Source of the DNA: a virus
Reading direction: 5' to 3' (one strand)
IMG/VR virus record: IMGVR_UViG_3300029915_000005
Length of the DNA stretch: 64,000 nucleotides
Position 1 is the first letter of the stretch. Each line of letters opens with the position of its first letter. The notes beneath the pieces are model-generated. The model was not told the origin of the DNA and ran no database searches. It saw nothing but the letters and a program-made list of their open reading frames with translations. Positions 9,444-48,387 of the stretch are shown here, piece after piece. A program made the translations under genes and the position numbers.

Positions 9444-9451
9444 GAATAAAC

Positions 9452-11654: not shown

Positions 11655-13253
11655 ATGGCATATGAAATTTTAAAAACTAATGGAACAGTATTAACATCAA
11701 TCCCAGATGGTCAATTGGTATCTTCTTATGGCGGATTAACTCTAATGGGCCACAAATATCCTGCCATCGGTACTATATTAAATACTGACTTGGTTCATAT
11801 TGTAGAAAATTTTGCAAGCACTACTCCTCCAACAAATCCATTAATTGGTCAATTATGGTATGATAGTGTTTCAAATACTATTAATTTTTGGAATGGTAAC
11901 GAATTTAATTCCATTAGTGTGATTACCAGCGCAGAAACCGCTCCACTAAGTCCAATAGGAGGAGATGAATGGTTTAACACTATAACTAATCAACTTTATA
12001 TTTGGTCTGGAAATCAATGGATTCTTGTCGGCCCACCAGGAGCATCTGGTGGTGGGACTGAAGGTTTGGTAGTTCAATCCATTAATGTAAATGGTAATCA
12101 AATTTATTATATTGAATTATATGCAAATAATCAATTATTAGGTATTATATCAACTGAAGAAATATTACAACCAGGAATTGATGGTTTTGGGAATATTAGA
12201 CCTGGTTTAAATTTTGTAATTTCACCAACTTTAGGATTGGCTTCTGGTGGTATTTTTAACATAAATGAACTAACTATTGGAGATTCTGATCAAATTGATA
12301 TAACTTTAGATTCTAAAGATAATTTGGTTCTTGCTTTAAATGAAAATAATAATGGTGGCAATATTCTGATTGCTGCTACAAATGGAAACACTCCTTCAGA
12401 AATTTCTTCATTAATTGGAACTGTTTATGTTAATAATTTAGTAGCAATTGGAAGTTTATCAGGGAATGTGCCTGGGGCAGACGGCCATATATTATTCAAT
12501 AACCATGGTATAACTGATGCTTTATTAAATTTATATGCTTCAACTGATCGATCCAGTATAAATATTCCAACTATATTAAATGTAAATAATATTAATGCCA
12601 ATAGCGAAATAATTAATGGTCCATTATCTGTTTCTGGTAGTTCAACAACAAATACATTGACTGTTAATCTAACTGCAAATATTTCTACTTTAGATGTTAC
12701 TGGAACTACCACAACATCAACATTAGATGTTACTGGAACCACCACAACATCAACATTAGATGTTACTGGAAATGCTACAATTGTGGGACCAGCATCTTTT
12801 CAACATCCTGTTACATTTAATTATTCATCTGCAAATGCTTTCATTCTTCCGCCATCTGCTGGTATAATTGGGCAAGCAGTTACTTCAAATGGAAACGGAA
12901 CTACTTCTTGGAGTAATATAGCTGGAGCAAAGTCTTTATCTCCATCATCAACTTCATTTACTGGAACTAATACCACTGGATCAGTGGCAGGTTACCAAAT
13001 ATTACCTGGTGGATTAATTTTGCAATGGGGGACTGTTACTGGAAGTGGCGGATTCAGCACGCCAAACGGAAGTTTTAATTATTTAATTGCTTTTCCTAAT
13101 ACAGTACTATCAGTAATTGGATCTATTTTATCAGCAAGTCAAGATGGATTTGTGATGTTTTCTTCTTATTCTTCTTCTGCGGCCAATTTTAAACTTCATT
13201 TTGACGCTGATATATCAGGATGGACTTTCAATTGGTTTGCAGTAGGATTCTAA
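11655..13253 (+). CDS. Tail fibre / receptor-binding protein
   Basis: N-terminal ENFA...PLIGQLWYD motif; TLDVTGTTTTS repeats; C-terminal GYQILPGGLILQWG...FPN...WFAVG fibre-tip domain. Confidence 0.7.
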   Translation: MAYEILKTNGTVLTSIPDGQLVSSYGGLTLMGHKYPAIGTILNTDLVHIVENFASTTPPTNPLIGQLWYDSVSNTINFWNGNEFNSISVITSAETAPLSPIGGDEWFNTITNQLYIWSGNQWILVGPPGASGGGTEGLVVQSINVNGNQIYYIELYANNQLLGIISTEEILQPGIDGFGNIRPGLNFVISPTLGLASGGIFNINELTIGDSDQIDITLDSKDNLVLALNENNNGGNILIAATNGNTPSEISSLIGTVYVNNLVAIGSLSGNVPGADGHILFNNHGITDALLNLYASTDRSSINIPTILNVNNINANSEIINGPLSVSGSSTTNTLTVNLTANISTLDVTGTTTTSTLDVTGTTTTSTLDVTGNATIVGPASFQHPVTFNYSSANAFILPPSAGIIGQAVTSNGNGTTSWSNIAGAKSLSPSSTSFTGTNTTGSVAGYQILPGGLILQWGTVTGSGGFSTPNGSFNYLIAFPNTVLSVIGSILSASQDGFVMFSSYSSSAANFKLHFDADISGWTFNWFAVGF

Positions 13254-13254
13254 A

Positions 13255-13848
13255 ATGAAAATATTTGAAGTAATTGATCCTTTAAATTTCAACTCGATAA
13301 AAGAATTTATAGAAATCAATTGCTCAGATATACTTAAATTTTATAAAGAAACTGGAAATATGCTATATCGAGGCATAAAAAACAATAAACCATATTTAAT
13401 TAACAATCCTGTTAAATATAGAACACCAGTAGATACTCCTGTGAACATTCAATATATAGTAGATGTGAAACTTGAGGCAGCAGGATTTACAGCATTAAGA
13501 TCAAACAGCATTTTTTGTTTTGGAAATTCTTATAATCCCAAATTTTATGGTAGAGTATATATGGTTTTTCCTTTCAATGGTTTTTCATATACTTGGTCTT
13601 TAAAAATTAAAGATTTATATGACGACTATGCTAGTGTATCTATGTTTTCAGGTAAAGCAATTAAAGATATGGAAAATATGTCTCCAAAAGAAGTCGTTGA
13701 TATTTTTGATTTTGTTTCAACAAATTTAAAAACTGCTTGTAATACTCCCAATGAAATACTAATTCATGGAAAATGTTTATTAGTAAACGCTGAATTATAT
13801 GAAAATAAAATAAATAAATTTATCTCTTTTTATTATTATCCCAATTAA
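13255..13848 (+). CDS. ADP-ribosyltransferase-like protein, paralogue 1 (leader MKIFEV)
   Basis: LYRG...GFTALRSNSIFC...YGRVYMVFP...NEILIHG; clearly paralogous to 29514, 30629, 31225, 32021. Fold is inferred from motifs. Confidence 0.5.
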   Translation: MKIFEVIDPLNFNSIKEFIEINCSDILKFYKETGNMLYRGIKNNKPYLINNPVKYRTPVDTPVNIQYIVDVKLEAAGFTALRSNSIFCFGNSYNPKFYGRVYMVFPFNGFSYTWSLKIKDLYDDYASVSMFSGKAIKDMENMSPKEVVDIFDFVSTNLKTACNTPNEILIHGKCLLVNAELYENKINKFISFYYYPN

Positions 13849-24691: not shown

Positions 24692-25210
24692 ATGAAGATT
24701 AATGAAGTCATTATCGATAATGAAAATGGATTAGGAGGAGTTTCATATAATCAAGAAATTGATTATCTTGGTCTTAGAGTGCTAATGTATCCATCCACAT
24801 TTTTAAGCCTAGCATATTATAGAAGTCGAAACGATTTAGGAAATGTTGACTATATAAAAAATTATATTAAAAATGGTGGGACTATTGGCGCTCCATTCCT
24901 TCAAATAAGTATTCCTAATAGATGGGAGAATGATGATTATTCTATTCCATCCATAGTTATTGGTCATGAAGGAAGAAATAGAATGATGGCACTCGATGAA
25001 CTTCAAGATGAAGGATTAGAACCTGATGTGCCAGTTGAAACTCATTTATTGTTTTATAAATATAGAGCCAGGCATTTAAAACCAGAATGGATAATACAAT
25101 TAAATAAACAACTTTATAATCAAAATACAGAATATGAATATCATTCTGGAGAAGTGGCTTATACAGATAGCCCTATAACCAAAGGGCCATTGTTTAAGGT
25201 TGTAAATTAG
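24692..25210 (+). CDS. ParB/Srx-like domain protein (leader MKINEV)
   Basis: APFLQI...VIGHEGRNRMMAL resembles the ParB/Srx (D/E)GxxR motif; TAAATA 5 nt upstream. Confidence 0.45.
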   Translation: MKINEVIIDNENGLGGVSYNQEIDYLGLRVLMYPSTFLSLAYYRSRNDLGNVDYIKNYIKNGGTIGAPFLQISIPNRWENDDYSIPSIVIGHEGRNRMMALDELQDEGLEPDVPVETHLLFYKYRARHLKPEWIIQLNKQLYNQNTEYEYHSGEVAYTDSPITKGPLFKVVN

Positions 25211-26170: not shown

Positions 26171-26193
26171 TATGAAAAAGAATAAATATAAGT

Positions 26194-29100
26194 ATGAGAT
26201 TACAAAATTTGTTTGAAGAAAAAATAAAACAAACAACTGCAACAATTTTTAGCGGTGGGTTTCACCCATTCCTTCCACAACATTTATATTGCTGGGAATA
26301 TTTGATTTCAAAATTTCCAAATGCACATCATTATATAGCTTCCACTAATAATATAAGTGAGCGACCATTTTCATTTAAGCAAAAACAATTTTTAGCAGTG
26401 CAAGCTGGCATACCTAAAAATGGATTTGTACAAGTAACAAGTCCTTATAAAGCATTGGAGATAACTAGTAAATATGATTCAAACAATACTATTGTTATAT
26501 TTGGTTTAAGTGAAAAAGATGCAGAAAGACTCGGACCAACGATAAAGAAAGATGGGACCCTGTCATTTTTACTACCATATCCTGGGCCTTCTACTCCACT
26601 AGAAACTTTGAATAAACATGCATATTATGTAATTATTCCTGTCCATAAGTATAGAGTTTTGGGACAAGAGATAACCTCTGCTTCTCAAATAAGAAAGATG
26701 TATACTTCTTCTAATGAAAGCGATAGATATACTATTATTCGAGAATTATATCCAAATTCTATGAAAGTTGGAGAGATTAAAAAAATATTTGATCAAGTTT
26801 TGCTTGCTCCAATAAATGAAGATATATATGACGTGATTTATAGACCAAAAAACGTTTATAATATAGAAGCGAATGAATATCCAGAATTTATGTTAGATGG
26901 GGATGTTCAACGTATGATATATGATTTGCACCAACAGGAAGAGATTGATGCTGGCTCTGATATTTGGGATAGAATGGATAGTGTCTGGTATAAGTTACAA
27001 AATGTTTCTATAAAAAAATTAGATAACATAAATGATTTAGATGAAGATGATGACCAATATTCTGATGAAATAACTCCTTTTCCTCCAATAGTATTAACAA
27101 AAAGAGGGGAAATATTAGATGGATTTCATAGGACTATTTCTGCTAAAATTCGTGGTGATAAAACAATTAGAGCATATGTTCCTTGCAAAAAACCAATTAA
27201 TGAATCTAAAGCTGGATTAGAATATAAATTAAAACTTGGAAACAAAAAATCTGTAATAGATTCAAGTGGCTGGCTATTTCCAGATAAAACTTTTGTTCCA
27301 CTTGTTCCAGGAACAACTCACGAAACAATGGCTACAAGATTGGGATATAATGGTTATGAAGGAATATATAAAATTGGATGTGTAAGAGTTTCCCGTCCAA
27401 TTTATGCTCCGGGTAAAATTTATATAGAAACAATACAAAAATTGAGTGATAGTACTTATAAGCTAATTATGAATATTATTCATAGAATAAAAGTGGATGT
27501 TAAAATAGATGTTACTGTTGGATCAGGTAATGGATATTTTCAACATTATAAATGGGATTTCAAAGATAGACAATTGCATAAAACAAATTTTTATGAGTCA
27601 GTTATAAATGAAGAACCTGATTTTAATTATACAAAATTTAATAATAGAGATGAAGAGCTTTCAAGATTAAAATTTGATTATTCAGTAATACCCAGTAATA
27701 ATGACGGAATTGGTGGATTTTGGATAATTGTAAATAACTCCTCTGGTGTTAGTGTGGCAGATATTGATTTGGTGGAAGTTAATTCAAAAACATTAGTAAT
27801 TTCTTTTATTAGAATTAATTTAAAATGGAAAGGTACTGGACTTGGGCAAATTCTGTATGACAAAGCGATTAAAAAAGCCAAACAATTAGGATATAAATAT
27901 TTTCGATCAGATACTGATAGATCAGCGGCTGCTGAAAAAGCGTGGAAAAGATTGGCAGCAAGATATACAGTTAAGTACAAAGAAGGCAAAGAATTTAATA
28001 AAGGGTATTATGAAATTGATCTAAGTAAAGTTCAATTAAAAGAATCATTTGATTATTCCTATAGAGCTAAATTATTTCAACTTAGACCACAAATGATTAA
28101 AGCTGCACAAAAAATATATGATAAATGGGAAGGAGGAGAAGTTGGTTTGTGTGATAGTATTGCAGAGTCAATTTCTGATTGTGTATTAAAAAATATAAAG
28201 AATATTGATTCATACGTGGTTGGCCATAAAAATCCAAAATTGCATGAACTTCATTTTTGGGTAAGAGTAGATTTTAATAATGGAGAAAAATATTATGATA
28301 TTGACTTACCATTTGGAAAATATGAAAGATATGATAATAAAAAACATTATTTTGTAAAAATACCAAATGTAAAATTTCAATTAAATGATTTATTAATATA
28401 TCAATCATCTTTAAATTATAATAAAGCTCCTTGGGAAATAAGAAATAGTTATACTCCACATAAATCAGATAGTTATTTTATCAGCGAATCTATTGCACAA
28501 GAAGTTATAAAAGTTGGTAAAAGCAATGATGAAATTATAAAATTAATCAAAGAAGCTACAAAATATAAATTATATGTTCCTACATTTACAGCGCAAAAAG
28601 AATTTGGTTGGATATTACAAACAGGAAATAAAGGTAAAATAAGTAAAATGGCTATGATGTATGTTAACAACATGCCTGTCGCTTGGATCATTTATTGGAA
28701 ACATGGAAGTTTTATGTCTGACTCTAATCCAAGAACAGAAAATGACAAATATTGGAGATTTACTAAAAAAGAATTTAGAAATATAGGTTATTATCATAAA
28801 TTAAAAAAAGCTTTATGGAATATAATTAATGAGGCACCAGATTTTGGCTACAAAAGTTTTAATGATAGAGATGAAGATATAAGCAAATTAAAGTGGGAAA
28901 TTGATAAAAGACCATTTAAAGATTGGAATAGTGATGAGGAACACCTAGGAATAATAATTAGGGCAAGAAATCCAGAAACTAATGAAGTAGAAGGTTTTAT
29001 AACTTCTAATGAGATAACCAAGAAAACATTAAAAATTTCAAGAAGTCAATTAACATCTAATCATAATTGGCAATCGACTGGTCTTGGACAAATGTTATAT

Positions 29101-29211
29101 GATAAACTTATTAACGTTGCAAAAGAATTAGGTTTTGATTATGTAGACAGTGATTATATTTTATCTGTGGATGCTAGAAAAGCTCTGAAAGATATCCAGT
29201 GCAAAAATTAA
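26194..29211 (+). CDS. Polyprotein 1: HIGH-type nucleotidyltransferase-like, ParB/Srx-like, unknown, GNAT, papain/transglutaminase-like, GNAT-like, GNAT
   Basis: FSGGFHPFLPQH...SASQIR; PPIVL...LDGFHR; WKGTGLGQILY; GLCD...HFWV...YDID; FRNIG; WQSTGLGQMLY; domains separated by INE/LKE/ISE; TAAATA 5 nt upstream. Confidence 0.65.
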   Translation: MRLQNLFEEKIKQTTATIFSGGFHPFLPQHLYCWEYLISKFPNAHHYIASTNNISERPFSFKQKQFLAVQAGIPKNGFVQVTSPYKALEITSKYDSNNTIVIFGLSEKDAERLGPTIKKDGTLSFLLPYPGPSTPLETLNKHAYYVIIPVHKYRVLGQEITSASQIRKMYTSSNESDRYTIIRELYPNSMKVGEIKKIFDQVLLAPINEDIYDVIYRPKNVYNIEANEYPEFMLDGDVQRMIYDLHQQEEIDAGSDIWDRMDSVWYKLQNVSIKKLDNINDLDEDDDQYSDEITPFPPIVLTKRGEILDGFHRTISAKIRGDKTIRAYVPCKKPINESKAGLEYKLKLGNKKSVIDSSGWLFPDKTFVPLVPGTTHETMATRLGYNGYEGIYKIGCVRVSRPIYAPGKIYIETIQKLSDSTYKLIMNIIHRIKVDVKIDVTVGSGNGYFQHYKWDFKDRQLHKTNFYESVINEEPDFNYTKFNNRDEELSRLKFDYSVIPSNNDGIGGFWIIVNNSSGVSVADIDLVEVNSKTLVISFIRINLKWKGTGLGQILYDKAIKKAKQLGYKYFRSDTDRSAAAEKAWKRLAARYTVKYKEGKEFNKGYYEIDLSKVQLKESFDYSYRAKLFQLRPQMIKAAQKIYDKWEGGEVGLCDSIAESISDCVLKNIKNIDSYVVGHKNPKLHELHFWVRVDFNNGEKYYDIDLPFGKYERYDNKKHYFVKIPNVKFQLNDLLIYQSSLNYNKAPWEIRNSYTPHKSDSYFISESIAQEVIKVGKSNDEIIKLIKEATKYKLYVPTFTAQKEFGWILQTGNKGKISKMAMMYVNNMPVAWIIYWKHGSFMSDSNPRTENDKYWRFTKKEFRNIGYYHKLKKALWNIINEAPDFGYKSFNDRDEDISKLKWEIDKRPFKDWNSDEEHLGIIIRARNPETNEVEGFITSNEITKKTLKISRSQLTSNHNWQSTGLGQMLYDKLINVAKELGFDYVDSDYILSVDARKALKDIQCKN

Positions 29212-29254
29212 AGCATGATGGAGAAAATTATTTAAGTATTGAATTGAGTAAAAT

Positions 29255-29524
29255 ATGAGAATAAGCGAAGTTAACAATTCGACGTTAGATATAACTAAAT
29301 TGAAGTGGAAAGGAGAACTTCAAAAGAAATCGTATCAATTGAGAGTTAGCGGAGAAGGATATGGCGAAGTTGGTATGTTTTTAACAACCAATAATAAAAA
29401 TGATTGGAAAATTTTTTATGTATTTGTAGATAATGATTGGAAGAATACAAATTTGAAACATATGATGTATGTAAAAATGAAAGAAATTGCTAAAAAATAC
29501 GGAGCAAAATTACATGCTGCTTAA
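29255..29524 (+). CDS. Short GNAT-like protein (leader MRISEV)
   Basis: DITKLKW...VFVDNDWKNTNL...MY...AKKYG matches the GNAT domains of the upstream polyprotein. Confidence 0.45.
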   Translation: MRISEVNNSTLDITKLKWKGELQKKSYQLRVSGEGYGEVGMFLTTNNKNDWKIFYVFVDNDWKNTNLKHMMYVKMKEIAKKYGAKLHAA

Positions 29525-30191
29525 TGAATTTGACAAATCGAAAGGTTTTTCAGCTTATGTAAAAGAAGATGAGACTAAAATTTTAATATTCTTAAATAAG
29601 CATTGCAGTGAAATTATGTCTTTGTATAGAGAATATGGAAAAGTATTGTATCGCGGCATCACACGATATTTTGGCAGTAATATATATAATTTCAAAGATG
29701 GAGATGTATTTTTCGGAAAATCCCCATCTGATAGACACCCAATAGATATACCATCTTCAGTACAGAAGCAAATAGATAGTAAATTACAAAAAAGTGGGTT
29801 TGAAGCATTAAGATCAAACAGCATTTTTTGTTGTTCTTCTAAACTATCAGCGCAAAAATATGGTGACCTACATATTATATTTCCATTGGATGGATTTTCA
29901 TATACATGGTGTAATACTGCTATTGATTTATATGACGAATATGTAAGAGCTTTGACTCCCACTCCTTGGGGTGAGACACCATCACAAGAAGATATTAATA
30001 AAGCAGAAATATTTAAAGAAAATTTATATAAGCTTTCTTCAACTGATTTTATTAGAGATTATGGTTTCAAGAATACAGATTTAACTCATGCAATTATTAG
30101 AAATAATGAAATTTTAATTCATGGTGACTATATCGCAATGAGCGAGAAATTAGGAAATAAAATAATATTTAGTAATAGGAGAAGTATATAA
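29514..30191 (+). CDS. ADP-ribosyltransferase-like paralogue 2 (leader MLLNEF)
   Basis: GGAG RBS at 29501; LYRG...LRSNSIFCCSS...AQKYG...NEILIHG. Confidence 0.5.
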   Translation: MLLNEFDKSKGFSAYVKEDETKILIFLNKHCSEIMSLYREYGKVLYRGITRYFGSNIYNFKDGDVFFGKSPSDRHPIDIPSSVQKQIDSKLQKSGFEALRSNSIFCCSSKLSAQKYGDLHIIFPLDGFSYTWCNTAIDLYDEYVRALTPTPWGETPSQEDINKAEIFKENLYKLSSTDFIRDYGFKNTDLTHAIIRNNEILIHGDYIAMSEKLGNKIIFSNRRSI

Positions 30192-30628
30192 TGAATAACT
30201 TAGAAATGAGTCTGAAAGTGGCGACTGCAACTGTTTTTCATTTAGGAATTAAATTTCATATTGGGCATTTTAATATAACTGGTCCAAGATTTTTCGAGTT
30301 ACATTTATTGCTTGAAAAAATATATCAAAATCTTGAAAGTAATTTTGACAGTATTGGTGAGCAACTTAGAGCATTGGATATATTTGTTCCATCGTCCGTA
30401 AATGAATTACTTAGTTTATCAGTTATAGAAGATTTTCAAGAAGTATTGCCAGCAAATGAAATGATTCATGAATTATTGATTGACAATGATAAATTATTGG
30501 AAATGCTAACTGAAGTTGATAAATTGGCAGTAAATCATATTGGTCTTCAAAATTATATTGAAGGATTAGCAGATCAACAAGAAAAGTTTGGTTGGTTTTT
30601 AAGAGCAACATTACAAGCAGTAAAATAA
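30191..30628 (+). CDS. dps: Dps-like ferritin family protein
   Basis: HFNITGPRFFELHLLLEKIY...DSIGEQLRAL...EKFGWFL Dps signature. Confidence 0.85.
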   Translation: MNNLEMSLKVATATVFHLGIKFHIGHFNITGPRFFELHLLLEKIYQNLESNFDSIGEQLRALDIFVPSSVNELLSLSVIEDFQEVLPANEMIHELLIDNDKLLEMLTEVDKLAVNHIGLQNYIEGLADQQEKFGWFLRATLQAVK

Positions 30629-31228
30629 ATGAAAATATGTGAACTACATATCGATGCTTCTGCTTTTGAACAGCAAGGATTAATTCTTAAAAAAGCTTTG
30701 GAAGAAGTGTCAGTATTATGCTCAGAATTTTTAAAATTTTATGAAGAAGCTGGACCAATGTATCATGGATTTCAATCAGCACCAAGTAATATTTTTGTAG
30801 GGGAACCACATACAGATAGAAAACCATTATCGCTTACTTATAAAGAACAATATGAGATAGATAAAAAATTATCATTGGCAGGATTTCATCAATTGCGTGG
30901 CAATAGTTTGTTCTGTATAGGAAATATTACAACAGCATCTGAGTATGGTGCAGTTTATCAAATTTTTCCAAAGAATGGTTTTAGATATACTTGGAGTGAT
31001 TTTTGCGATTTAGTTACAGATATAAGATATACAGAAATGATGTATGATCTTCATTCTTTAAGTCCCAATGATTTTGCTGATAAGTATGAATTTAGGGAAA
31101 ATATGGGATTATCATTGGCTTTACAACAAGGAAAAGAAATATATCTTGGTGGAGAATTTATTGCAATATCAGAATTAATGGTAACTAGACATTCAAATAC
31201 ATATTTACAGTGGACAAAAACTTTATGA
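30629..31228 (+). CDS. ADP-ribosyltransferase-like paralogue 3 (leader MKICEL)
   Basis: MYHG...LRGNSLFC...ASEYGAVYQIFP...KEIYLGG. Confidence 0.5.
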   Translation: MKICELHIDASAFEQQGLILKKALEEVSVLCSEFLKFYEEAGPMYHGFQSAPSNIFVGEPHTDRKPLSLTYKEQYEIDKKLSLAGFHQLRGNSLFCIGNITTASEYGAVYQIFPKNGFRYTWSDFCDLVTDIRYTEMMYDLHSLSPNDFADKYEFRENMGLSLALQQGKEIYLGGEFIAISELMVTRHSNTYLQWTKTL

Positions 31229-32040
31229 AAATAAACGAAATCAGTAAAAAAATAAAGATTGGAATGCATCCCTCAAATGAGCCAGAAGATAAAATTGTTC
31301 AGTTCATTAAGAAAAACTGTTCTCAAATTGTAAAAGTTTATGAAAACAGTCATAGTAATTTTTTATTCAGTGGGAAAGAGTCTTATAGTGATGTATTTTT
31401 TGGCAAACCTATTAATAATAGAGCACCACTGGGAACAGACCGCAAGATCAATAATAAATTAAATAGTGTTCTAAGACAAGTTGGATTTAAAGCACGACGA
31501 GATAATAGTATTTTTACTACTTCTATGGAAGTTACAGCGCAGGAATATGGCAAAGTATATATAATTTTTCCATTGAATGGTTTTGACTATTCGTGGTGTG
31601 CTCTTGCTGAAGATTTAACTATGGAGTTTGATATTGGCGAAAAAAAATATAGTGTCTCCAGAGAGAATAATGAATTTTACAATGATTTGATTACATTGCT
31701 GCCACAAGAGTTTGTTCAAAAATATCATTTTAAAAATAATGAAGGATTTGAATATGCATTGACAAATGGATTTGAAATTTTGATACACGGAAGTTATGTT
31801 GCAATTAGCGAAGAATCTTCTTTATTAGAAATAATATTACCATTTTATAGATTTAATGAAGATAACGATTTAGAAGAATCAGCATCGTGCGGATCAACTA
31901 GTTCTGGATCGATTGCAACTGTCAACGGAACAAACACTCCTCCATCTGGGCAATTTTTTGGTGGAGATCCTAATAGTTCAGTATATGGAAAAATTAAGAG
32001 AAATCGTAGGAGAAGAAAGAATGCTACTCCGAGAGTTTGA
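31225..32040 (+). CDS. ADP-ribosyltransferase-like paralogue 4 (leader MKINEI) with C-terminal Ser/Gly-rich basic tail
   Basis: LFSG...RRDNSIFTTS...AQEYG...FEILIHG, then LEE-SASCGSTSSGSIA...RNRRRRK. Confidence 0.5.
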   Translation: MKINEISKKIKIGMHPSNEPEDKIVQFIKKNCSQIVKVYENSHSNFLFSGKESYSDVFFGKPINNRAPLGTDRKINNKLNSVLRQVGFKARRDNSIFTTSMEVTAQEYGKVYIIFPLNGFDYSWCALAEDLTMEFDIGEKKYSVSRENNEFYNDLITLLPQEFVQKYHFKNNEGFEYALTNGFEILIHGSYVAISEESSLLEIILPFYRFNEDNDLEESASCGSTSSGSIATVNGTNTPPSGQFFGGDPNSSVYGKIKRNRRRRKNATPRV

Positions 32041-32908
32041 TTTGGATATGTCAAAACTAAGTTCAGGAGATGTTAAAGAAATCAATGCTAATGTTGAATC
32101 TTTATCTCTATGGATAAAAGATCATTGTTCAGAATTTTTGAAAATGAAAGGAGCAAATGATCTCGTTCGAGGTGTTAGAGAAAACTCACCAAGTATTTTT
32201 ATGGGATATCCAAGAAAAAATAGAAGAAGTATTGAAGGAGAAATATCTACTGAGCTTACTAAAATAGTAGACAAATATATGCAAATGACTGGTTTTACTG
32301 CTCTTCGAGGAAATAGTTTATTTTGTAATAGTGATCCTGAAATGGCTGAACCATGGGGTGAATTATATGTCATATTCCCTATAAATGGATTTACTTTTGC
32401 GTATAGTAAACGACATACTTGTTGTTCAGGGGCAAGTTATATATTTCCAACAGAAGCTATTGACGAAAATTTACGCACATATGTAGACCAAATTTCTGAT
32501 TTTTGGAATCGTAAAAAATACGATGTCCATGGATATTCAGAAAATATAAAAAAATTTTTAAAATATTGGTATACTCTTAATGAGTTTTATTCCAAAAAAG
32601 TAAATTATTTTAATATTACTACAGTAATAAGAAATATTATTAAGACGTACAATTCTTTTACTAACGACGAAAAGGTTATGTTATCTGGTTCAGTAGTTGA
32701 TCGTGCAATTATTGATCTTGGAAGAGAATTGAAACAGTTAGGAACAGATGAAATAATTGCTAAAAAATTCATAGTAAACAATAAATTGACCAATAAAAAT
32801 TTGAAATGGGCTTTAGAAAATAGCTATGATGTGTGGATTCACGGAGCATATATTGCCATTGACAGAGAATTATATATACATAATTTTGATTTATTTGAAA
32901 AACTATAA
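32021..32908 (+). CDS. ADP-ribosyltransferase-like paralogue 5 (leader MLLREF)
   Basis: AGGAG RBS; LVRG...LRGNSLFCNS...WGELYVIFP...YDVWIHG, with a ~100-aa insertion. Confidence 0.5.
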   Translation: MLLREFDLDMSKLSSGDVKEINANVESLSLWIKDHCSEFLKMKGANDLVRGVRENSPSIFMGYPRKNRRSIEGEISTELTKIVDKYMQMTGFTALRGNSLFCNSDPEMAEPWGELYVIFPINGFTFAYSKRHTCCSGASYIFPTEAIDENLRTYVDQISDFWNRKKYDVHGYSENIKKFLKYWYTLNEFYSKKVNYFNITTVIRNIIKTYNSFTNDEKVMLSGSVVDRAIIDLGRELKQLGTDEIIAKKFIVNNKLTNKNLKWALENSYDVWIHGAYIAIDRELYIHNFDLFEKL

Positions 32909-32941
32909 ATACTAAAGAGAATAAATTATTGGAGTAACTAT

Positions 32942-35900
32942 ATGAAAAAGAAATCATTATTGGGATCAACAAAACCATACAGAAATCCAAAGTGGCTTGG
33001 CCCACAAGATAAAGTTGACAATCTTGGCCCAATTCTTGGAGCAAAACCAAAAAAATCAAAAGTTTTGAGCACAAAATTCATGGGATGCAGCAAAAATATG
33101 ACTAATAAAAATATCATTGCGGAAAATAATAAATATTCATCAAATGAAAAAGCACAACTGGCTGCTGTTCGACGAGATGGTTATGCAATTGAATGGATTG
33201 ACAATCCAAGCGAAGCTGTGCAAATGGCTGCTGTTAAACAAAATGGTTATGCAATTGGATACATCAGCAAGCCAAGCGAAGCTGTGCAAATGGCTGCTAT
33301 TCAACGAAATTATCGTGCAATTGAATACATCGACAAACCAAGCGAAGCTGTGCAAATGGCTGCTGTTCGACAAGATGGTTGGGCAATTGAATACATCGAC
33401 AATCCAAGCGAAGCTGTGCAACTTGCTGCTGTTCAACAAAATGGTCGTGCAATTCAATTCATAAAAAAGCCAACAATTAATGTCAAATTAATGGCTAAAT
33501 CAAAAGTTTTGAGCACGAAATTTCAAGGTTGTTCCATAGATCGCTCCAATAGCAATATTATTTCTGAATATAAAGATGATTATAATCCATCCAATGAAGA
33601 ATGGCTTAAAAATGAAATTGATTACGCCTATGAAATTTTTAATAATGAGGAATTTCCAAGAGTGGACAGAGAAGAAGCTCATCGAAGAATAAAGCTTTTA
33701 AATGCTGAAGCAAAAAAGAAAGGATATATTGATAAGTGGAATAAAGAAGCGCAAGAAGAAGCAGAAAAGACTCATATTAAACCAGAACTTTTAGATGTTC
33801 TTGATGATGTACGAGGCTATATTCATCACGGGAAAACTATAAACAAAGCTGATAGTAATATGTTACATAGTATGGGAATTAGTGAAGCTGTAAACAAATA
33901 TCCAATTTCTGCCAGAATAAATCCAAGATCATTAAAAAAATTATCTTTGTTGGGGCCAGAAGATAAACTTGGATTTGGAGCAGGATTAATAACAATCACT
34001 AATAAAGTATATATTGCAGCATGGCATTCAGAAATTCGTGCAAAACGTGGTTATGATATTTGTAGATTAAGTGAAGGAGCAATTAGAATTAGACAGGGTG
34101 GTTGGGATTGCGGAGATAATACAATAATTGAGTTTGGAAAATATGATGATGACACAATTTATAGACTTAAACAAATAATTCCATATGTTACTTCTCCAAC
34201 AAATAAATTTAAATTAGAGTGTGATGCTCGTGGAATAAATAATGATCATTTATATGTGACTGGAAATAAAGAATATATTATGGCAGAATTGGAAGAATGG
34301 TTAACTCCAAGACAAAAAGTTCCACTTCCAGGAAGTGTTATGGCATTTCATATGCAAGAATCAAAAGAAACTCCAAAATTAACATATAGAGAGTTTGCAA
34401 ACGCAAGCAAAGCAAAGAATAAGAAGTGCCCAACTTGTGAAAGCGAATTTAAGAATGTTCACTCAGCGAATCAAAAATATTGTTCCTCGGATTGTGAAGT
34501 GAAAGGAGAGACAGTTAAAAAATTACAAGAAGCGTTTGATAAATCAATAATAAGAAAAGCTGGATTTATTCCTTATTATTTTGATAACTTTGGAAAACTC
34601 AGAATGATGTTTGTTATGAGCAGTGATCCAACTTATGGCGGAAGCAAGTGGATGATAGCTAAAGGGCATATCGATGGAAAAGAAACAGATTTACAAGCTG
34701 CTTTACGAGAAGGAAACGAAGAGTGTGGGGTTAAGCAGTCAAATATTAAATTTATTAAACTTGGGTGGAAAGGTTTAATAAAAGGTTACACAGAATCTTC
34801 TGAAATGACAATTTATATTGGAGAAGTTAAAGACCCAGTTGATTTTGATAAACCAGGTAACGAAATAAAAGCTGTTAAATGGATAACTCCAGAAGAATTT
34901 AATTCGATTGGAAGAAATAGTCAAAAATTTATTGTTGAAGCATGTGTAAACAAAATTGGAGATAAAATGCGATTTTCTGAAATAAAAGAATCAAGAAAAT
35001 TTACAGTTTATAAAGATGGTGGTTTTTATGGCCCAAAATATGAATATGGATACATAGGAGTTCAAGACGAAGATGGGCATGATATGACTTATATTGGAAA
35101 GAAAAGTGTTCCCAATATGAATATACAGCAAGCAATATCAGCCCTTAAACAACAATTTCCAGGATGTGAAGTGAAAATTAAACTATCAAAAATATCTGAA
35201 GGTATGCTCAATGGACTAACTGTTATGTCTCTCGATCAATTTTTGGATGGCGAAAATCCAGAAGAAACTGAATTGGAAGACGAGATGTTGGGAGAAGCTG
35301 GAGAATTTGGTCTTGGTTCTAAATATCGAAACGCAAGTCATAAAGAAATGCAGGATTATCTTGATAGAACAGTATTCAAGAAGAAAAATAAACTTGATCC
35401 ATACACTATGCCATATATTCACCCAAGCAATGTAAAAAAGAATGCAGATGGTTCAGTTCCTATTATTGATGAAAATGGCGATAAGTATGATCTTGATGCT
35501 TTAAGAGATGCTATTACTAAAAGACCTAGTGGCTTACTTAAACAGAATGAGAAGATGAAACACAGTAATGGTACTGCCACAGTTTATTATAATGTTGGTT
35601 TGCCAGCATTAAAAGGATTGTCAGTTAATGAAGAAACAGGAGAATTTGTAGTTGTTGATACTTGCCCTGGTGCAGGTATTTGCAAAAATTATTGTTTCGC
35701 AATGAAAGGAAGCTATATTATGTTTCCTGGAGTTAGCATGAAGTCTGCGCAAACATTAAATTATTTATTGAATGATCCAGAAGGATTTAAAGCAGAATTA
35801 ATTGGTGAAATTTCAAAAGCAATCGCTAAATGGGATAATTTTACAGATAAAGATTTTAATAAAGGAGATGTTGAAGTTTCAATAAGGTGGCATGATTCAG

Positions 35901-36403
35901 GAGACTTCTTCAGTCCTGAATATATGGATATGGCTTGGGATGTTGCTAGAGAATTCCCAAATAATTTGTTTTATGCTTACACCAAAATAGCTGATGTTGC
36001 AAATTCAGAGGACAAGCCAGATAATTTTGTAATTAATTTTAGTGCTGGTGCATCTTCAACGCAAAGCAATTTAGTTAATATAAGTGCAGTTAAACATAGC
36101 CAAGTAGTGCCCAAAGATTTATTCTATGATTTAATTGCACGCAAAGGTATTAAGCTTATTAAAAATGCAGCAGGAGCCACACAATTTAGAGGTCCAGAAG
36201 AATGGAATGAATTAAAAGATAGATTGGCTGAAAAATATGATATAGATGTTGATACTATTTTAAGTTATGATGAATTTGTGGAAAAGAAGATGAATAAAAC
36301 GCTCGGCACTAAACCAAAATGGAATGTTACAGTTCTTCCTGGAGAAGGAGACGTTTCAGCAACAGATCCTACAGTAAAAGGTACATACTTAATGTTTCAC
36401 TAA
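32942..36403 (+). CDS. Polyprotein 2: DUF4116-like repeats, unknown domains, Zn ribbon, Nudix hydrolase, Gp88-like Cys-cluster domain
   Basis: AAVxxNGxAIxxI repeats; CPTC...CSSDC; Nudix box KGHIDGKETDLQAALREGNEECG; TCPGAGICKNYCFA...IRWHDSGDF...FYAYTK; TATAAATA at 32904. Confidence 0.65.
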   Translation: MKKKSLLGSTKPYRNPKWLGPQDKVDNLGPILGAKPKKSKVLSTKFMGCSKNMTNKNIIAENNKYSSNEKAQLAAVRRDGYAIEWIDNPSEAVQMAAVKQNGYAIGYISKPSEAVQMAAIQRNYRAIEYIDKPSEAVQMAAVRQDGWAIEYIDNPSEAVQLAAVQQNGRAIQFIKKPTINVKLMAKSKVLSTKFQGCSIDRSNSNIISEYKDDYNPSNEEWLKNEIDYAYEIFNNEEFPRVDREEAHRRIKLLNAEAKKKGYIDKWNKEAQEEAEKTHIKPELLDVLDDVRGYIHHGKTINKADSNMLHSMGISEAVNKYPISARINPRSLKKLSLLGPEDKLGFGAGLITITNKVYIAAWHSEIRAKRGYDICRLSEGAIRIRQGGWDCGDNTIIEFGKYDDDTIYRLKQIIPYVTSPTNKFKLECDARGINNDHLYVTGNKEYIMAELEEWLTPRQKVPLPGSVMAFHMQESKETPKLTYREFANASKAKNKKCPTCESEFKNVHSANQKYCSSDCEVKGETVKKLQEAFDKSIIRKAGFIPYYFDNFGKLRMMFVMSSDPTYGGSKWMIAKGHIDGKETDLQAALREGNEECGVKQSNIKFIKLGWKGLIKGYTESSEMTIYIGEVKDPVDFDKPGNEIKAVKWITPEEFNSIGRNSQKFIVEACVNKIGDKMRFSEIKESRKFTVYKDGGFYGPKYEYGYIGVQDEDGHDMTYIGKKSVPNMNIQQAISALKQQFPGCEVKIKLSKISEGMLNGLTVMSLDQFLDGENPEETELEDEMLGEAGEFGLGSKYRNASHKEMQDYLDRTVFKKKNKLDPYTMPYIHPSNVKKNADGSVPIIDENGDKYDLDALRDAITKRPSGLLKQNEKMKHSNGTATVYYNVGLPALKGLSVNEETGEFVVVDTCPGAGICKNYCFAMKGSYIMFPGVSMKSAQTLNYLLNDPEGFKAELIGEISKAIAKWDNFTDKDFNKGDVEVSIRWHDSGDFFSPEYMDMAWDVAREFPNNLFYAYTKIADVANSEDKPDNFVINFSAGASSTQSNLVNISAVKHSQVVPKDLFYDLIARKGIKLIKNAAGATQFRGPEEWNELKDRLAEKYDIDVDTILSYDEFVEKKMNKTLGTKPKWNVTVLPGEGDVSATDPTVKGTYLMFH

Positions 36404-36411
36404 GGAAAAAT

Positions 36412-37025
36412 ATGAGACTAGATGAATATTCAAAACCAAGAGTTCCTGTAAAAGTTTTTAAAGTAGTTGATGATGAAGTTCGTACTTCATCATCTTCATT
36501 GAATATGGACCAAAAATTAGAAAAACTTGGTTGGGAATTTTTTAACGGAGGGTCTTTTGCAGCAGTATATACAAATCCTAAAAAACCATATATTCTAAAA
36601 ATCAATAAACAACCGGATAAAGCTTATGCTTATTATGTGTCAATAATAAGAAAATTGCATAATAAACATTTTCCAAAAATAAGTGATTTGAAATTTATAG
36701 AAGTTAATGGTGGTCGATATTACATATATCTTATTGAGAAATTACATAAGGCAAAATATGGAGTAGCAATAGCTAGTAGACTAGATTTTATTATGAATAA
36801 TTATGAAATTCCTCTGAAAAAATAGAGCAAGATTATTATAGATTATATGATACAAAAGCAGGATTTGAATATTTTGAAAAACATCTTGATTTATTTAAAG
36901 CTGCACAAATTATTGGAAAAAATAAAGAAACAAGTAATGTGCCAGGATTATTTTTTGATATGCATTCTGGAAATATTATGCAGAGAAAAGACGGAACAAT
37001 TGTTATAACTGATCCATACTTCTAA
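36412..37025 (+). pseudogene. T7 gp0.7-like protein kinase, paralogue A (leader MRLDEY), split by a -1 frameshift
   Basis: GGSFAAVY...YILKIN...FPKI...YLIEKL stops at TAG 36823-36825; the -1 frame from 36822 continues to DMHSGNIMQRKDGTIVITDPYF*. Confidence 0.75.
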
Positions 37026-37033
37026 GGATAACT

Positions 37034-37624
37034 ATGAATTTAAATGAATTATACAAACCGAAAATATCTAAAGATATTGATAATGAAATAAATTATCATT
37101 TCAATTATGGCGCTGGAAATACTCAGCAACTAAGAAATCGTCTTAAAAAATTTGGATGGATATATTTAGATGAAGGAGTTTATAGTTCAGTTTGGGGAAA
37201 TGTTAAAAAATCTTATATTCTTAAAATAAATAAAGTTCCTGATAGAGCATTCGATCATTATGTTAATATAATTAAGAAAAGTAAAAATCCTCATTTTCCA
37301 AAAATAAGTGATATGAGAGAAATAGCTATTGGACCTAAAATTTATTGTGCTTATTTAATTGAAAAATTATTTAAAATTCCTGGCCATTTTGTTGGTGATA
37401 ATTACTCAACTTTTTTCAATACAATTATTAATGCGGATCCAAAATATTCAATTTCTAAACTGTTTAATAACCATATTCCTACCATATTTAAAAAACAACC
37501 AAAACTAGTTGATGCATTATGCATAGTTGGTTCTGAACACAATAACTATTTTATTGATATGCATTCTGGAAATATTATGCAAAGAAAAGATGGAACAATT
37601 GTTATAACTGATCCTTATGCATAA
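37034..37624 (+). CDS. T7 gp0.7-like protein kinase, paralogue B (leader MNLNEL)
   Basis: EGVYSSVW, YILKIN, FPKI, YLIEKL, DMHSGNIM, ITDP. Confidence 0.75.
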   Translation: MNLNELYKPKISKDIDNEINYHFNYGAGNTQQLRNRLKKFGWIYLDEGVYSSVWGNVKKSYILKINKVPDRAFDHYVNIIKKSKNPHFPKISDMREIAIGPKIYCAYLIEKLFKIPGHFVGDNYSTFFNTIINADPKYSISKLFNNHIPTIFKKQPKLVDALCIVGSEHNNYFIDMHSGNIMQRKDGTIVITDPYA

Positions 37625-37673: not shown

Positions 37674-37835
37674 TCAATTTTTGGTTCTATTTCGTTTATT
37701 CTCATTATTCCACCACAATGAATGATCACTCGTGTCTGGTTTACCAATGTACTCTAAATTTATTTCAACTTCTCCAGACGGTCTTTCTGGATATTCTCTA
37801 ATGAGATTCCATTTTGGAATTTCATCGATTTTCAT
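37674..37835 (-). CDS. Short leader-bearing ORF, 53 aa (MKIDEIPKW...)
   Basis: Start overlaps the end of the upstream minus-strand gene and has the same MKIDEI leader. Confidence 0.4.
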   Translation of the reverse strand: MKIDEIPKWNLIREYPERPSGEVEINLEYIGKPDTSDHSLWWNNENKRNRTKN

Positions 37836-38628
37836 TTCTTATTTTCTCCAGCCAATCCAGATAATTCATCATAGGATTTCGTATATACCATGCCAATGTT
37901 TTATAATCTCTAAATTTCGTTTTAAATAAATCCTCTTTCAAGCTTGGAAATGTATTGTTCACTTCTATATTCATTCCTGGAATTTTATGCTTTCTATAAT
38001 ACACCAATTCTTTGGCAGCTTTTCCAACATATTTTTTAAGAAAAGTTCCAATATTAATTAAATAATATTCATCACAATCAAAAATTAATTCATTTTTAGT
38101 AAAATTCTTGGGAAGTCCTTCTCTATATGTAGATGCCATAGATGCTGGAATTCTTCTATCATCTGTCATATGCCCCATATTTCCTGTAATTATCATTCCA
38201 TATTTGTCTGCATCTTCTCCAGCGACAGTATTACCACCAATATCAACCACTACTGGACTCCAAACAACTTTATAATTCTCTGTAGGAACAAAAATTCTAG
38301 CTTGGCCATGAAACAAATATAATTCGCTTGGAGTGATCATAGTACAAAAAGTTGGATTTTTTATGTCCAATTTTTTCATTATATCTGTAAGAGAACTTGC
38401 AAACATTCCTTTTGCGTTATATTCAAAATTTTTATTTTCATGATTGGTAACTTTGATAATAGGAGTTTCTGGTGTTGTAGCATTAAATGCTCTATATATT
38501 AAAGGATAATTTCCCATTCTATCGCAAAAACCTGCAACAATATTTGCACGGGCTCTAATATGCTGAATTTCAGCAGCATGTATAACAGCTTCTTCTAATT
38601 TCTCTTTTGTTATTTCATCGATTTTCAT
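37822..38628 (-). CDS. Divergent ADP-ribosyltransferase-like protein (leader MKIDEI); minus strand, mislabelled + in the track
   Basis: cat at 38626-38628 and tca at 37822-37824 show the minus strand; LIYRA...TFCT...HG..RIFVP...VVWS...NELIF parallels the ART-like family. Confidence 0.45.
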   Translation of the reverse strand: MKIDEITKEKLEEAVIHAAEIQHIRARANIVAGFCDRMGNYPLIYRAFNATTPETPIIKVTNHENKNFEYNAKGMFASSLTDIMKKLDIKNPTFCTMITPSELYLFHGQARIFVPTENYKVVWSPVVVDIGGNTVAGEDADKYGMIITGNMGHMTDDRRIPASMASTYREGLPKNFTKNELIFDCDEYYLINIGTFLKKYVGKAAKELVYYRKHKIPGMNIEVNNTFPSLKEDLFKTKFRDYKTLAWYIRNPMMNYLDWLEKIRNENR

Positions 38629-47988: not shown

Positions 47989-48387
47989 ATGACAAGTTGG
48001 CATTTTGGTGGTAATTGTTACTTTAAATATCGTTCAGGATCGATTTATTTAATTGATCGACCATGGTGGTTAGCATTGGTTGTATGGTTCAGTGATGAAA
48101 TTCTTGGAAGAATATGCGATTTATTGATGTGTATTCCTCTTCCCAAATATGGAAGAATAGTAGAGCAAGGCCAAGTTTTCACGATTAAAGAATATTATGG
48201 AACAGTTGGTGATTTATTCCATATTTATATTCATGATCCAGTATTTACTTGGTGTTGGACACATAAAAAGAAAAAAGAAATTATAGTTGACGTTGGATAT
48301 GATAAATTAAAAGAATTATTCAATGACTATGATGGCAAGTATTTTAAAGATATAGAAGATAGACATAAGGAATATGATGGCAATTAA
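47989..48387 (+). CDS. Hypothetical protein
   Basis: 132-aa ORF packed in the operon. Confidence 0.55.
   Translation: MTSWHFGGNCYFKYRSGSIYLIDRPWWLALVVWFSDEILGRICDLLMCIPLPKYGRIVEQGQVFTIKEYYGTVGDLFHIYIHDPVFTWCWTHKKKKEIIVDVGYDKLKELFNDYDGKYFKDIEDRHKEYDGN

Follow-up and report, generated by a model that had tools for sequence, protein, structure and literature searches.

Five genes of the window (the whole 64,000-nucleotide stretch of DNA analysed here, from an uncultured T4-related phage) encode paralogues of a protein family which we propose, with a probability of about 0.6, to consist of head-packaged, probably protease-trimmed effector enzymes resembling T4 Alt and diversified between strands 4 and 5 of their fold. 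In this model, the proteins would be produced late and would carry at the N-terminus a short leader, with [I/L]-x-Glu at its end, which would direct them to the prohead; there, a head protease of the T4 type would probably remove it. The proteins would be stored in the capsid, then ejected into the host together with the DNA, and would ADP-ribosylate host targets with NAD+, as T4 Alt does. NAD+ use, ADP-ribosyl transfer, leader cleavage, packaging in the window phage, ejection and host targets are the parts of this model that we infer. Each copy would probably have a target of its own, since the variable insert adjoins the position of the catalytic Glu on ADP-ribosyltransferases (ARTs).

The five genes all lie on the + strand: copy 1 at 13255..13848 (197 aa), copy 2 at 29514..30191 (225 aa), copy 3 at 30629..31228 (199 aa), copy 4 at 31225..32040 (271 aa) and copy 5 at 32021..32908 (295 aa). 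Pairwise identity among them was 27–36%, copies 2–5 being 30–36% identical to copy 1. Each copy matched PHROG 11975 (phrog_11975, function unassigned there) with E values of 1e-21 to 1e-35. A profile built from the five copies and run against the 495 six-frame ORFs of the window recovered exactly these five (E 1e-77 to 1e-95), the next match reaching only E 0.41. In copy 1, whose numbering is used below, the predicted triad positions are R39, F87 (with R82-S-N84-S85 just before it) and E167, and the leader is MKIFE. Copy 2 carries the motifs LYRG, LRSNSIFC and NEILIHG behind the leader MLLNE. His occupies the first triad position in copy 3 (MYHG; leader MKICE) and Ser in copy 4 (leader MKINE), a rare state present in 3 of 169 family domains; copy 4 also has a basic, Ser/Gly-rich C-terminal tail. 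In copy 5 (leader MLLRE), Asp replaces the strand-5 Glu, as in 2/169 domains, and the variable region, which separates strands 4 and 5, is longer by about 100 residues. For these five copies the motifs are thus those described in a sequence-only reading of this DNA, the first position being R/R/H/S/R and the last E/E/E/E/D. Judged by these substitutions, copies 4 and 5 may be weakened or retargeted. The segment 29514–32908, given in the same reading as the site of the family, holds copies 2–5 and also an unrelated Dps/ferritin-like gene (30191..30628, + strand; PF00210, E 7.5e-11). A near-identity search of the DNA from 29000 to 33000 against phage records gave no match.

That reading had counted six paralogues, and the sixth, a protein encoded on the - strand (37822..38628, leader MKIDE), does not stand as a member. 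It reached only E 7.9 with the five-copy HMM among the six-frame ORFs of the window, did not match phrog_11975, and is devoid of the family-invariant Arg82 and Ser85. With hhalign, the probability was 2.7% (E 0.017) against a 19-sequence family profile and 38% (E 3.3e-4) against the 169-domain profile; the latter match covered 48 core columns with a score of 32, compared to a top score of 17.6 among 30 column shuffles. Its AlphaFold model, based on three sequences, was not usable (pLDDT 32.7), and the ESM Atlas returned chance-level rows only, with no link to the family. This borderline core match would make the protein a remote relative at best.

The family itself is large. It counts 6836 cluster representatives and up to 12 copies are present in a single genome, and despite these thousands of members no name for the family was found in Pfam, NCBIfam, PHROGs or UniProt. 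Conservation was counted over 169 family domains. R82, N84, S85 and P106 were each kept in all 169, R56 in 168, G40 in 162 and F87 in 165 (Y in 3), whereas Y98 was present in 141. Position 39 was R in 135 domains and H in 27, and E167 was kept in 167, the other two having Asp. These polar residues are near-invariant although overall identity in the family is only about 30%. The insertions show two hot spots, after residues 124 and 140, where inserts reach 157 and 99 residues, respectively. In the aligned sequences, the paralogues differ mainly in this hypervariable insert between the predicted strands 4 and 5.

The assignment to the ART fold had been made from motifs, and structure prediction followed by fold searching favours it. 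The AlphaFold model of copy 1 (pLDDT 82.6, pTM 0.82) shows six strands, at 38–41, 86–89, 100–106, 111–115, 168–171 and 174–178; ARTs have as their core a split sheet with six strands (PMC7955679). When this model was searched exhaustively against 48,161 PDB representatives, 49 chains reached Z >= 2. Judged by title, these were 35 ART-superfamily members, 3 unclear cases and 11 others, and in a repeat search the 15 best rows were all of the ART superfamily. The best match was BC2332 (SCOP class d.166.1.6, ADP-ribosylation superfamily), with 121–124 residues aligned at an rmsd of 3.7–4.0 and a Z of 6.2–6.5; for comparison, a best Z of 7–8 is usual for models lacking any clear match. With the copy 1 model, Foldseek gave no PDB match at E <= 0.001. 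In the ESM Atlas, which provides an independent model, the nearest named neighbours were DUF2441 and ART-PolyVal, both within the Pfam ART clan (PMC7955679). Sequence searches gave no support of this kind: the Pfam scan of the five copies showed no ART family at E <= 1, the NCBIfam scan no match for the family, and the family profile run against PDB sequences no ART and two chance-level matches only. PF10386 (DUF2441) sequences were sought in the genomes and none was found, and ADPrib_exo_Tox (PF03496) was present in 0/5 of Atu_ph07 and four related records; for both families the control genomes also gave 0, so that the second count is uninformative.

The motifs of the family occupy the places of the ART catalytic triad, namely strand 1, strand 2 and the front of strand 5, according to the secondary structure of the model. 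The Y-[R/H]-G motif sits in the strand 38–41, and the third position of the [R/H]-G-[S/T] motif of ART strand 1 (PMC7955679 Table 1) is not S/T in copy 1. The S83-N84-S85 segment is directly ahead of the strand 86–89, which contains F87, and E167 is directly ahead of the strand 168–171. Y98 lies 11 residues past F87, a spacing which resembles the Y-x10-Y of diphtheria toxin (DT) and PARP. The equivalent of the strand-2 triad residue would be either S-N-S or F87. The proposal that [R/H]-G, N-S-x-F and the late Glu form an ART triad is supported by their predicted locations, and the family domain is predicted to be a diverged ART fold.

The genomic context of the copies was then considered. Copy 1 begins 2 bases past the stop of a tail-fibre gene (11655..13253, + strand; Gp53-like_C, E 1.3e-11), in agreement with the earlier remark that one copy is directly behind such a gene. 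A related viral locus, L002, shows the same gene kinds as those around copy 1 (tail fibre, family gene and ResIII helicase). Copies 2–5 belong to a string of genes on the + strand headed by a 1005-aa multi-module protein with GNAT modules (26194..29211), the start of which is abutted by an ATAAATA-N5-ATG box resembling a T4 late promoter (26182..26196, + strand). Between 26194 and 36403 no terminator-like site was found on the + strand. A HIGH-type nucleotidyltransferase, suspected by eye at the N-terminus of the 1005-aa protein, was dropped, Pfam finding nothing there. The string continues with an 89-aa GNAT-like protein (29255..29524, + strand; leader MRISE), and directly 3' of the array is a 1153-aa multi-module protein with DUF4116 repeats, NUDIX and GP88 (32942..36403, + strand). 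DUF4116, NUDIX and GNAT were found fused to family domains in other proteins. Such fusions were at first read as pathway links; their joints resemble polyprotein linkers, so that co-packaging explains them at least equally well.

A start of the form M-x-[LIVM]-x-E was present in 115 of the 127 representatives with an N-terminal family domain, against a background of 9% for [LIVM]-x-E within any 12-residue stretch. In the window, the leader was carried by 10 of the 68 first-ATG ORFs, compared to 0.26 expected (P 1.6e-13), and the genes concerned included some unrelated to the family: kinases, a nucleotidase and the GNAT-like protein. No enrichment was seen for TATAAATA in the window (23 found and 16.4 expected). 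In a 2645-aa protein (P0018), each of the five family modules is preceded by [LV]-x-E-S, and the 1005-aa protein contains seven [LIVMF]-x-E-[SAG] sites versus 2.8 expected by shuffling; an [LIVMF]-x-E site near the start was found in only 11/41 internal family domains. The sites of the T4 head protease, gp21, follow an [L/I]-x-E pattern, which the family leader matches. The leader counts 5 residues in the window phage and 8 in Agrobacterium phage Atu_ph07, and the targeting propeptides of T4 internal proteins 10–19; gp21 also processes Alt, which is head-packaged in T4 (PMC9026906 section 2.6). A gp21-type protease (Peptidase_S77) was found in three of five related viral records and is also present in Atu_ph07 (PMC6102473 Table S3). 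By analogy with T4, the leader is probably trimmed by the head protease.

Atu_ph07, a cultured giant phage, possesses 12 family genes (gp53–63 and gp408), which were mapped by molecular weight, with an agreement within 0.01 kDa, to the published table of virion proteins. All 12 products had been detected by ESI-MS/MS in virion preparations, with 3–31 unique peptides and 12–47% coverage (PMC6102473 Table S5). By our count the table lists 140 proteins, and the Atu_ph07 record has 714 annotated features. The 41.4 kDa gp63 was most abundant in the gel band of the 30-kDa members, which would fit a proteolytic cut. It shows I-T-E at residues 117–119, just ahead of its family domain, which starts at 121. 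The sample was a PEG-purified stock and the same table includes some replication proteins (1–4 peptides); detection is therefore not in itself proof that a protein is packaged in the head. The presence of homologues in virion preparations nevertheless strengthens the analogy with T4 Alt drawn in the sequence-only reading, and suggests that the family proteins are probably enzymes which enter the host together with the DNA.

Other explanations of these observations can be envisaged. It is unlikely that the proteins are ART-fold enzymes acting on nucleic acid or small molecules, by DNA or RNA ADP-ribosylation (DarT), phosphate transfer (Tpt1/KptA) or NAD+ hydrolysis, yet several observations point in this direction. 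Structures of DarT, Arr and Tpt1 are among the nearest folds in the PDB searches, the three near-invariant arginines (39, 56 and 82) would suit phosphate binding, and storage would be beside the DNA. The Dps-like, DNA-binding gene of the array recurs beside family genes in four related viral loci, 6 of 150 ORFs scanned in the neighbourhoods encode NUDIX proteins, and NAMPT and an NMNAT-NUDIX gene lie within 3 kb in the locus L027. However, neither DarT nor Tpt1 showed similarity at the level of residues, these neighbours may stem from phage kinship or co-packaging and not from a common pathway, and the joint of a NUDIX fusion (P0158) is I-S-E-S, as in polyprotein linkers. Numerous paralogues with a hypervariable insert are a better fit for many protein targets. 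More doubtful is a non-catalytic head cargo: the family members would be internal proteins like T4 IPI–III and would use an ART-like scaffold only to bind or block proteins of the host's defences or signals derived from ADP-ribose. The retention of R56, R82, N84 and S85 in 168–169 of 169 domains, and of E167 in 167 with Asp in two, at about 30% identity, points to a conserved active or ligand site and not to a scaffold. Such a role would agree with the leader and the virion detection, as for T4 internal proteins, with the tandem, fast-diverging arrays typical of anti-defence cargo, and with the rare active-site substitutions of copies 4 and 5; ART-fold pseudoenzymes are known, PARP13 being one of them and among the structure-search matches.

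The least probable explanation is that the domain is not an ART, that its likeness is one common to alpha/beta proteins, and that the family provides structural parts of the virion such as fibre or whisker accessories. The low best Z and the absence of Foldseek matches would be expected in this case, copy 1 follows a tail-fibre gene, a family gene of L002 has the same kinds of gene around it, and Atu_ph07 bears hair-like fibres (PMC7824862). Nevertheless, 35/49 and 15/15 structure matches fall in one superfamily, the right residue types are on the right strands at three ART motif positions, the independent ESM Atlas model indicates the same families, and four of the five copies are away from fibre genes. 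Head-packaged, Alt-like effectors remain our preferred reading.

T4 Alt is a known case of a head-packaged ART, and a wider occurrence of such enzymes has been predicted in a survey which included Atu_ph07; none of four family accessions looked for occurs in the part of its supplement examined (PMC9503650). New here are the leader statistics, the leader on unrelated window genes and the virion link via the Atu_ph07 homologues. We suggest tentatively, and at somewhat less than even odds, that the family is a hitherto unrecognised major ART clade which supplies T4-related phages of large and jumbo size with a diversified set of ejected effectors, up to 12 paralogues in one genome, and that the leader M-[KR]-[IL]-x-E (5–8 residues) is a general address-and-cut tag, carried also by the kinases, the nucleotidase and the GNAT-like protein. 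If this were true of the tag, the proteins that such phages eject could be identified straight from their sequences. The leader offers a rule, open to test, that tells which proteins of a phage accompany the DNA, and it could tag foreign proteins for capsid loading, a use to which the T4 targeting sequence has already been put. If active, the proteins would represent a large untapped set of enzymes that modify their targets in the host as soon as infection begins, and the variable insert would provide a natural series for studies of target choice.

The family can be compared with four known systems. BC2332 of Bacillus cereus (PDB 2AUA), which we take to be a DUF2441 member, is the best structural match, and DUF2441 the closest of the named families in the ESM Atlas. 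The function of BC2332 is not known, although it gave matches with the active-site templates of diphtheria toxin and exotoxin A. Identity is only 9–12%, the window proteins have no PF10386 match, and BC2332 is bacterial, without leader, arrays or virion link. ART-PolyVal (PF18760) modules, the ART domains of phage polyvalent proteins, resemble the family, as predicted here, in their ART fold and in their predicted delivery together with the DNA; they often occur inside multi-module proteins and are weak structural neighbours (TM 0.39–0.50). They differ in showing no sequence match (the BFVD match reached only E 0.32), and the family consists mostly of stand-alone tandem genes with a leader each. 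With T4 Alt, the family shares T4-related phages as carriers and, by prediction, an ART-type fold; Alt is head-packaged and gp21-processed, and the family has homologues in virion preparations and a leader ending in [L/I]-x-E. No sequence relation to Alt is detectable, however, the Alt/VIP2 Pfam match being absent in all five copies. T4 Alt is an ART of the R-S-E kind, whereas the nearest folds of the family are of the H-Y-[EDQ] kind (BC2332, Arr, DT and PARP), and the family proteins are of about 200 aa, have a leader of 5–8 residues and number up to 12 in a genome. As compared to T4 IPI, IPII and IPIII, the window leader is shorter, at only 5 residues, and the cargo is an enzyme-like domain instead of a small basic protein. 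The two systems have in common a short conserved N-terminal segment, a propeptide in T4 and a putative one in the family, on otherwise unrelated proteins, and the leaders in Atu_ph07 follow M-[RK]-W-x-Q-L-x-E, a form similar to that of the T4 propeptide, in which positions 8 and 10 govern processing (PMC9026906).

The window encodes five paralogues of one family on the plus strand, at 13255–13848 (copy 1), 29514–30191 (copy 2), 30629–31228 (copy 3), 31225–32040 (copy 4) and 32021–32908 (copy 5). Copies 2–5 were 30–36% identical to copy 1, and all five matched phrog_11975, a group of unknown function, with E values of 1e-21 to 1e-35; none matched Pfam or NCBIfam. A five-copy profile run against the 495 six-frame ORFs of the window found only these copies, the next match having an E value of 0.41. 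The motifs described in the sequence-only reading were present in all five, with the residue states it had given for them (R/R/H/S/R at the first position, E/E/E/E/D at the last). The sixth paralogue that it had counted, at 37822–38628 on the minus strand, was not borne out: its HMM E value was 7.9, and it had no match to phrog_11975. Arg82 and Ser85, invariant in the family (copy 1 numbering), were missing from this protein, its AlphaFold model was unusable (pLDDT 32.7) and the ESM Atlas search yielded no link to the family. The hhalign probability was 2.7% against a 19-sequence family profile and 38% against a 169-domain profile (E = 3.3e-4, score 32, 48 core columns). As the latter score exceeded those of all 30 column shuffles (top score 17.6), a remote sequence kinship of its core to the family is possible.

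The family is large. Its profile, run against 1.84 billion cluster representatives, retrieved 6836 at E ≤ 0.001; of these, 4418 had an E value of 1e-10 or lower and 830 one of 1e-30 or lower. The 28 predicted viral structures matching in BFVD (E ≤ 0.001) were unnamed or uncharacterised phage proteins, save one labelled "chorismate mutase-like" and one "Zeta toxin domain". Tandem sets were common in 54 viral-contig loci, with a maximum of 8 family genes per 20 kb, and the 33 long representatives scanned included fusions of the family domain with DUF4116 (three proteins), GNAT (one) and NUDIX (one). The cultured Agrobacterium phage Atu_ph07 has 13 family-matching places in 12 genes, eleven of them consecutive (gp53–gp63) and one apart (gp408).

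A PEG-purified stock of Atu_ph07 has been analyzed by ESI-MS/MS (PMC6102473), and all 12 family genes appear in virion Table S5 of that paper (140 rows by our count; the phage record holds 714 annotated features). The unique peptides and coverage were 31 and 45.5% for gp53, 15 and 30.8% for gp54, 3 and 12.1% for gp55, 11 and 46.6% for gp56, 9 and 38.2% for gp57, 7 and 36.5% for gp58, 7 and 34.1% for gp59, 10 and 42.3% for gp60, 9 and 45.3% for gp61, 12 and 44.4% for gp62, 13 and 38.9% for gp63, and 6 and 24.8% for gp408. The gp numbers were matched to the genes of the record by order; computed molecular weights agreed with the table within 0.01 kDa for all listed members of gp53–gp69 and gp407–gp408 (gp66 is absent from it). 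Lysate carry-over is possible in this sample, since the table also contains a few replication proteins with 1–4 peptides each. The sequence M-[RK]-W-x-[QD]-L-x-E opens 11 of the 12 family proteins, and the N-terminus of gp63, MRLFQLLE, also ends in L-x-E. The 41.4 kDa gp63, with I-T-E at 117–119 and a domain starting at 121, peaked in gel band 8, as did the 30-kDa members, and the 87 kDa gp53 peaked in band 9. These patterns are compatible with proteolytic trimming, short of proof. Atu_ph07 has a homologue of gp21, the T4 head protease, in gp204 (PMC6102473 Table S3). A 778-aa Atu_ph07 protein is labelled "Zeta toxin domain-containing protein" in BFVD; we take it to be gp53 (1485–3821 of its locus, L056), which has the same length and also bears a family domain.

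The cleavage consensus of gp21 is [L/I]-x-E. The protease cuts Alt, the head-packaged ADP-ribosyltransferase (ART) of T4, and has a conforming "LIE" site of its own (PMC9026906, PMC9958956); T4 internal proteins carry capsid-targeting propeptides of 10–19 residues, in which residues 8 and 10 govern processing, and replacing the E by D in T4 prevents cleavage while targeting is retained (PMC9026906). In the window, a short leader, M-[KRLN]-[ILV]-x-E-hydrophobic, opens 14 gene starts: copies 1–5, the sixth protein, a 5'-nucleotidase, an unknown 172-aa protein, an 89-aa GNAT-like protein, a 53-aa ORF and four gp0.7-like kinase-type genes. Three more matches were internal methionines. Among first-ATG ORFs, 10 of 68 had the leader against 0.26 expected from its internal frequency (P = 1.6e-13). 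The kinase-type genes, at 36412–36825 (+), 37034–37624 (+), 38641–39231 (−) and 39182–39841 (−), flank the sixth gene; three of them encode paralogous T7 gp0.7-like kinases (phrog_15752), one is a 137-aa ORF with a similar N-terminus, and all may be further cargo. Across the family, M-x-[LIVM]-x-E opens 115 of the 127 listed representatives with an N-terminal domain (background of [LIVM]-x-E: 9% per 12-residue stretch). The leader lies outside the fold, because residues 1–6 of the copy 1 model have a pLDDT below 50 and a linker of variable length follows in the family alignment. The metagenomic protein P0018 (2645 aa) is a polyprotein form of the tandem gene array: an [LV]-x-E-S site (679, 1709, 1913, 2129 and 2372) stands before every one of its five family modules, which start at 685, 1719, 1919, 2156 and 2378, and the protein has 17 [LIVMF]-x-E-[SAG] sites in total. 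Only 11 of 41 internal family domains had an [LIVMF]-x-E site near their start, which counts against a general rule, and many others had a Lys-rich N-terminal extension in its place. A gp21-type peptidase (Peptidase_S77) was found in three of five related viral records; both records that lack it are 35–39% complete.

The window comes from an uncultured large phage related to T4. Its G+C content is 30.8%. Among its genes are those for a family-B DNA polymerase, several homing endonucleases and three virion components (a giant virion protein, a baseplate hub and a gp53-like tail fibre); a near-identity DNA search with 29000–33000 gave no close match among phage records. The GTP cyclohydrolase and QueE-like radical-SAM genes at 46673–47347 (+) and 48374–49243 (+) suggest 7-deazaguanine DNA modification. 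Copy 1 starts 2 bases after the tail-fibre gene, confirming the adjacency reported earlier, and in the related viral locus L002 a family gene is surrounded by genes of the same kinds. Copies 2–5 lie inside a tightly packed same-strand gene string (26194–36825), in which no terminator-like site was found on the plus strand and which is headed by an ATAAATA-N5-ATG box. This box occurred 10 times in the window (for example at 16280, 24118, 24680, 26182, 39853 (−), 46541 and 59094) against 1.5 expected, a count reached by none of 100 shuffles; plain TATAAATA was not enriched (23 against 16.4 expected). A T4-late-promoter-like box fixed 5 bases before start codons suggests near-leaderless late mRNAs.

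Of the giant genes flanking this string, one encodes a 1005-aa protein with GNAT modules and the other a DUF4116-NUDIX-GP88 protein of 1153 aa, both with more [LIVMF]-x-E-[SAG] sites than shuffled sequences (7 versus 2.8 and 9 versus 4.6, respectively). By eye, the N-terminus of the former (26194–26853 (+)) resembles a HIGH-type nucleotidyltransferase motif and a D-G-F-H-R further on resembles ParB, neither found by Pfam. The 5'-nucleotidase (NT5C-like) and 172-aa protein genes, at 24130–24654 (+) and 24692–25210 (+), both have the leader and the late-promoter-like box, and NT5C genes adjoin family genes also in L010 and L012. A Dps/ferritin-like gene (30191–30628 (+)) lies within the array, as others do within or beside arrays in L005, L010, L012 and L024; zeta-toxin-like P-loop kinase genes adjoin family genes in L023, L025 and L027. 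Among 150 of the 277 de-duplicated ORFs within 3 kb of family genes (loci L002–L028 only), there were 6 NUDIX, 4 ferritin/Dps, 3 zeta-toxin-like kinases, 2 NT5C, 1 GNAT, 1 NAMPT and 1 GP88. In the 318-kb contig L027, nicotinamide phosphoribosyltransferase and NMN-adenylyltransferase-NUDIX genes (6013–9629) have two family genes less than 3 kb away, placing NAD+ salvage beside putative NAD+ users. Co-packaging or common ancestry, instead of a common pathway, may account for the fusions and neighbour links.

The ART fold had been proposed from motifs, and structure prediction and fold search now support it on a predicted model. The AlphaFold2 model of copy 1, built on a 19-sequence alignment (pLDDT 82.6, pTM 0.82), has six strands (38–41, 86–89, 100–106, 111–115, 168–171 and 174–178). 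That the match arose by chance is the rival to be weighed here: Foldseek found nothing in the PDB at E ≤ 0.001, its top match being the Bacillus cereus protein BC2332 (2AUA, E = 0.036), and the structural Z-scores were modest (≤ 6.5), a level at which the alignment tool itself advises caution. Exhaustive alignment to 48,161 PDB representatives gave 49 chains at Z ≥ 2, by title 35 ART-superfamily, 3 unclear and 11 unrelated. BC2332 led (Z = 6.2), followed by Arr, a PE-like toxin, cholix toxin, exotoxin A, AvrPphF-ORF2, diphtheria toxin, DarT and CteC; tankyrases, PARPs, OspC3/CopC, Tpt1, TccC3, SopF and PltA also ranked below it. In a second-look search, all 15 of the matches listed belonged to the superfamily (BC2332, Z = 6.5). 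We favor the ART fold over chance because nearly all matches share one superfamily, despite the modest Z-scores. BC2332 itself is classed in the ADP-ribosylation superfamily (SCOP d.166.1.6; PMC3000352) and is matched by templates built on the active sites of diphtheria toxin, exotoxin A and cholix toxin (PMC3024214). The ESM Atlas model of copy 1 (pTM 0.82) had DUF2441 and ART-PolyVal as its nearest named neighbours (TM 0.39–0.50), both members of the Pfam ART clan (PMC7955679).

The motifs that define ARTs (PMC7955679, Table 1 and introduction) are R/H-G-S/T on strand 1, S-x-S or Y-x-x on strand 2 and, where strand 5 has its front edge, x-x-E. In the copy 1 model, strand 1 contains [R/H]39-G40, strand 2 contains F87 and is abutted by S-N-S (83–85), and E167 immediately precedes strand 5; by secondary-structure placement, S-N-S or F87 would be the candidate strand-2 equivalent. 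F87 and Y98 are 11 residues apart, a spacing that resembles the distance between two tyrosines in diphtheria toxin, exotoxin A and PARP. Over 169 listed domains (the five copies and 164 from 150 listed representatives and earlier matches), position 39 was R in 135, H in 27 and S in 3, and G40 was found in 162, R56 in 168, F87 in 165 (Y in 3 more), Y98 in 141 (F in 24 more) and E167 in 167 (D in 2 more), with R82, N84, S85 and P106 each in all 169. The Ser39 of copy 4 and the Asp167 of copy 5 are thus rare states (3 and 2 of the 169). Variation in length and sequence was concentrated between strands 4 and 5, where column entropy was highest, with inserts of up to 157 residues after residue 124 and up to 99 after residue 140; copy 5 is longer there by about 100 residues.

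The best-supported reading is that the family consists of head-packaged, probably protease-trimmed, putative ART-fold enzymes that are delivered together with the DNA and have diversified in an insert facing the target. Less likely rivals are chemistry directed at nucleic acid or NAD+, non-catalytic cargo and a chance fold match. Packaged phage ARTs are already a published concept (PMC7824862, PMC9503650). We found no description of the phrog_11975 family in the literature on BC2332, Atu_ph07, DUF2441 and ART-PolyVal, and the Atu_ph07 paper (PMC6102473) mentions neither ADP-ribosylation nor paralogues. A 2022 survey covered Atu_ph07 (PMC9503650); four family accessions were absent from the examined part of its supplement, the remainder of which could name them. 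On the favoured reading, the family members are functional counterparts of T4 Alt that belong to another branch of the ART superfamily.
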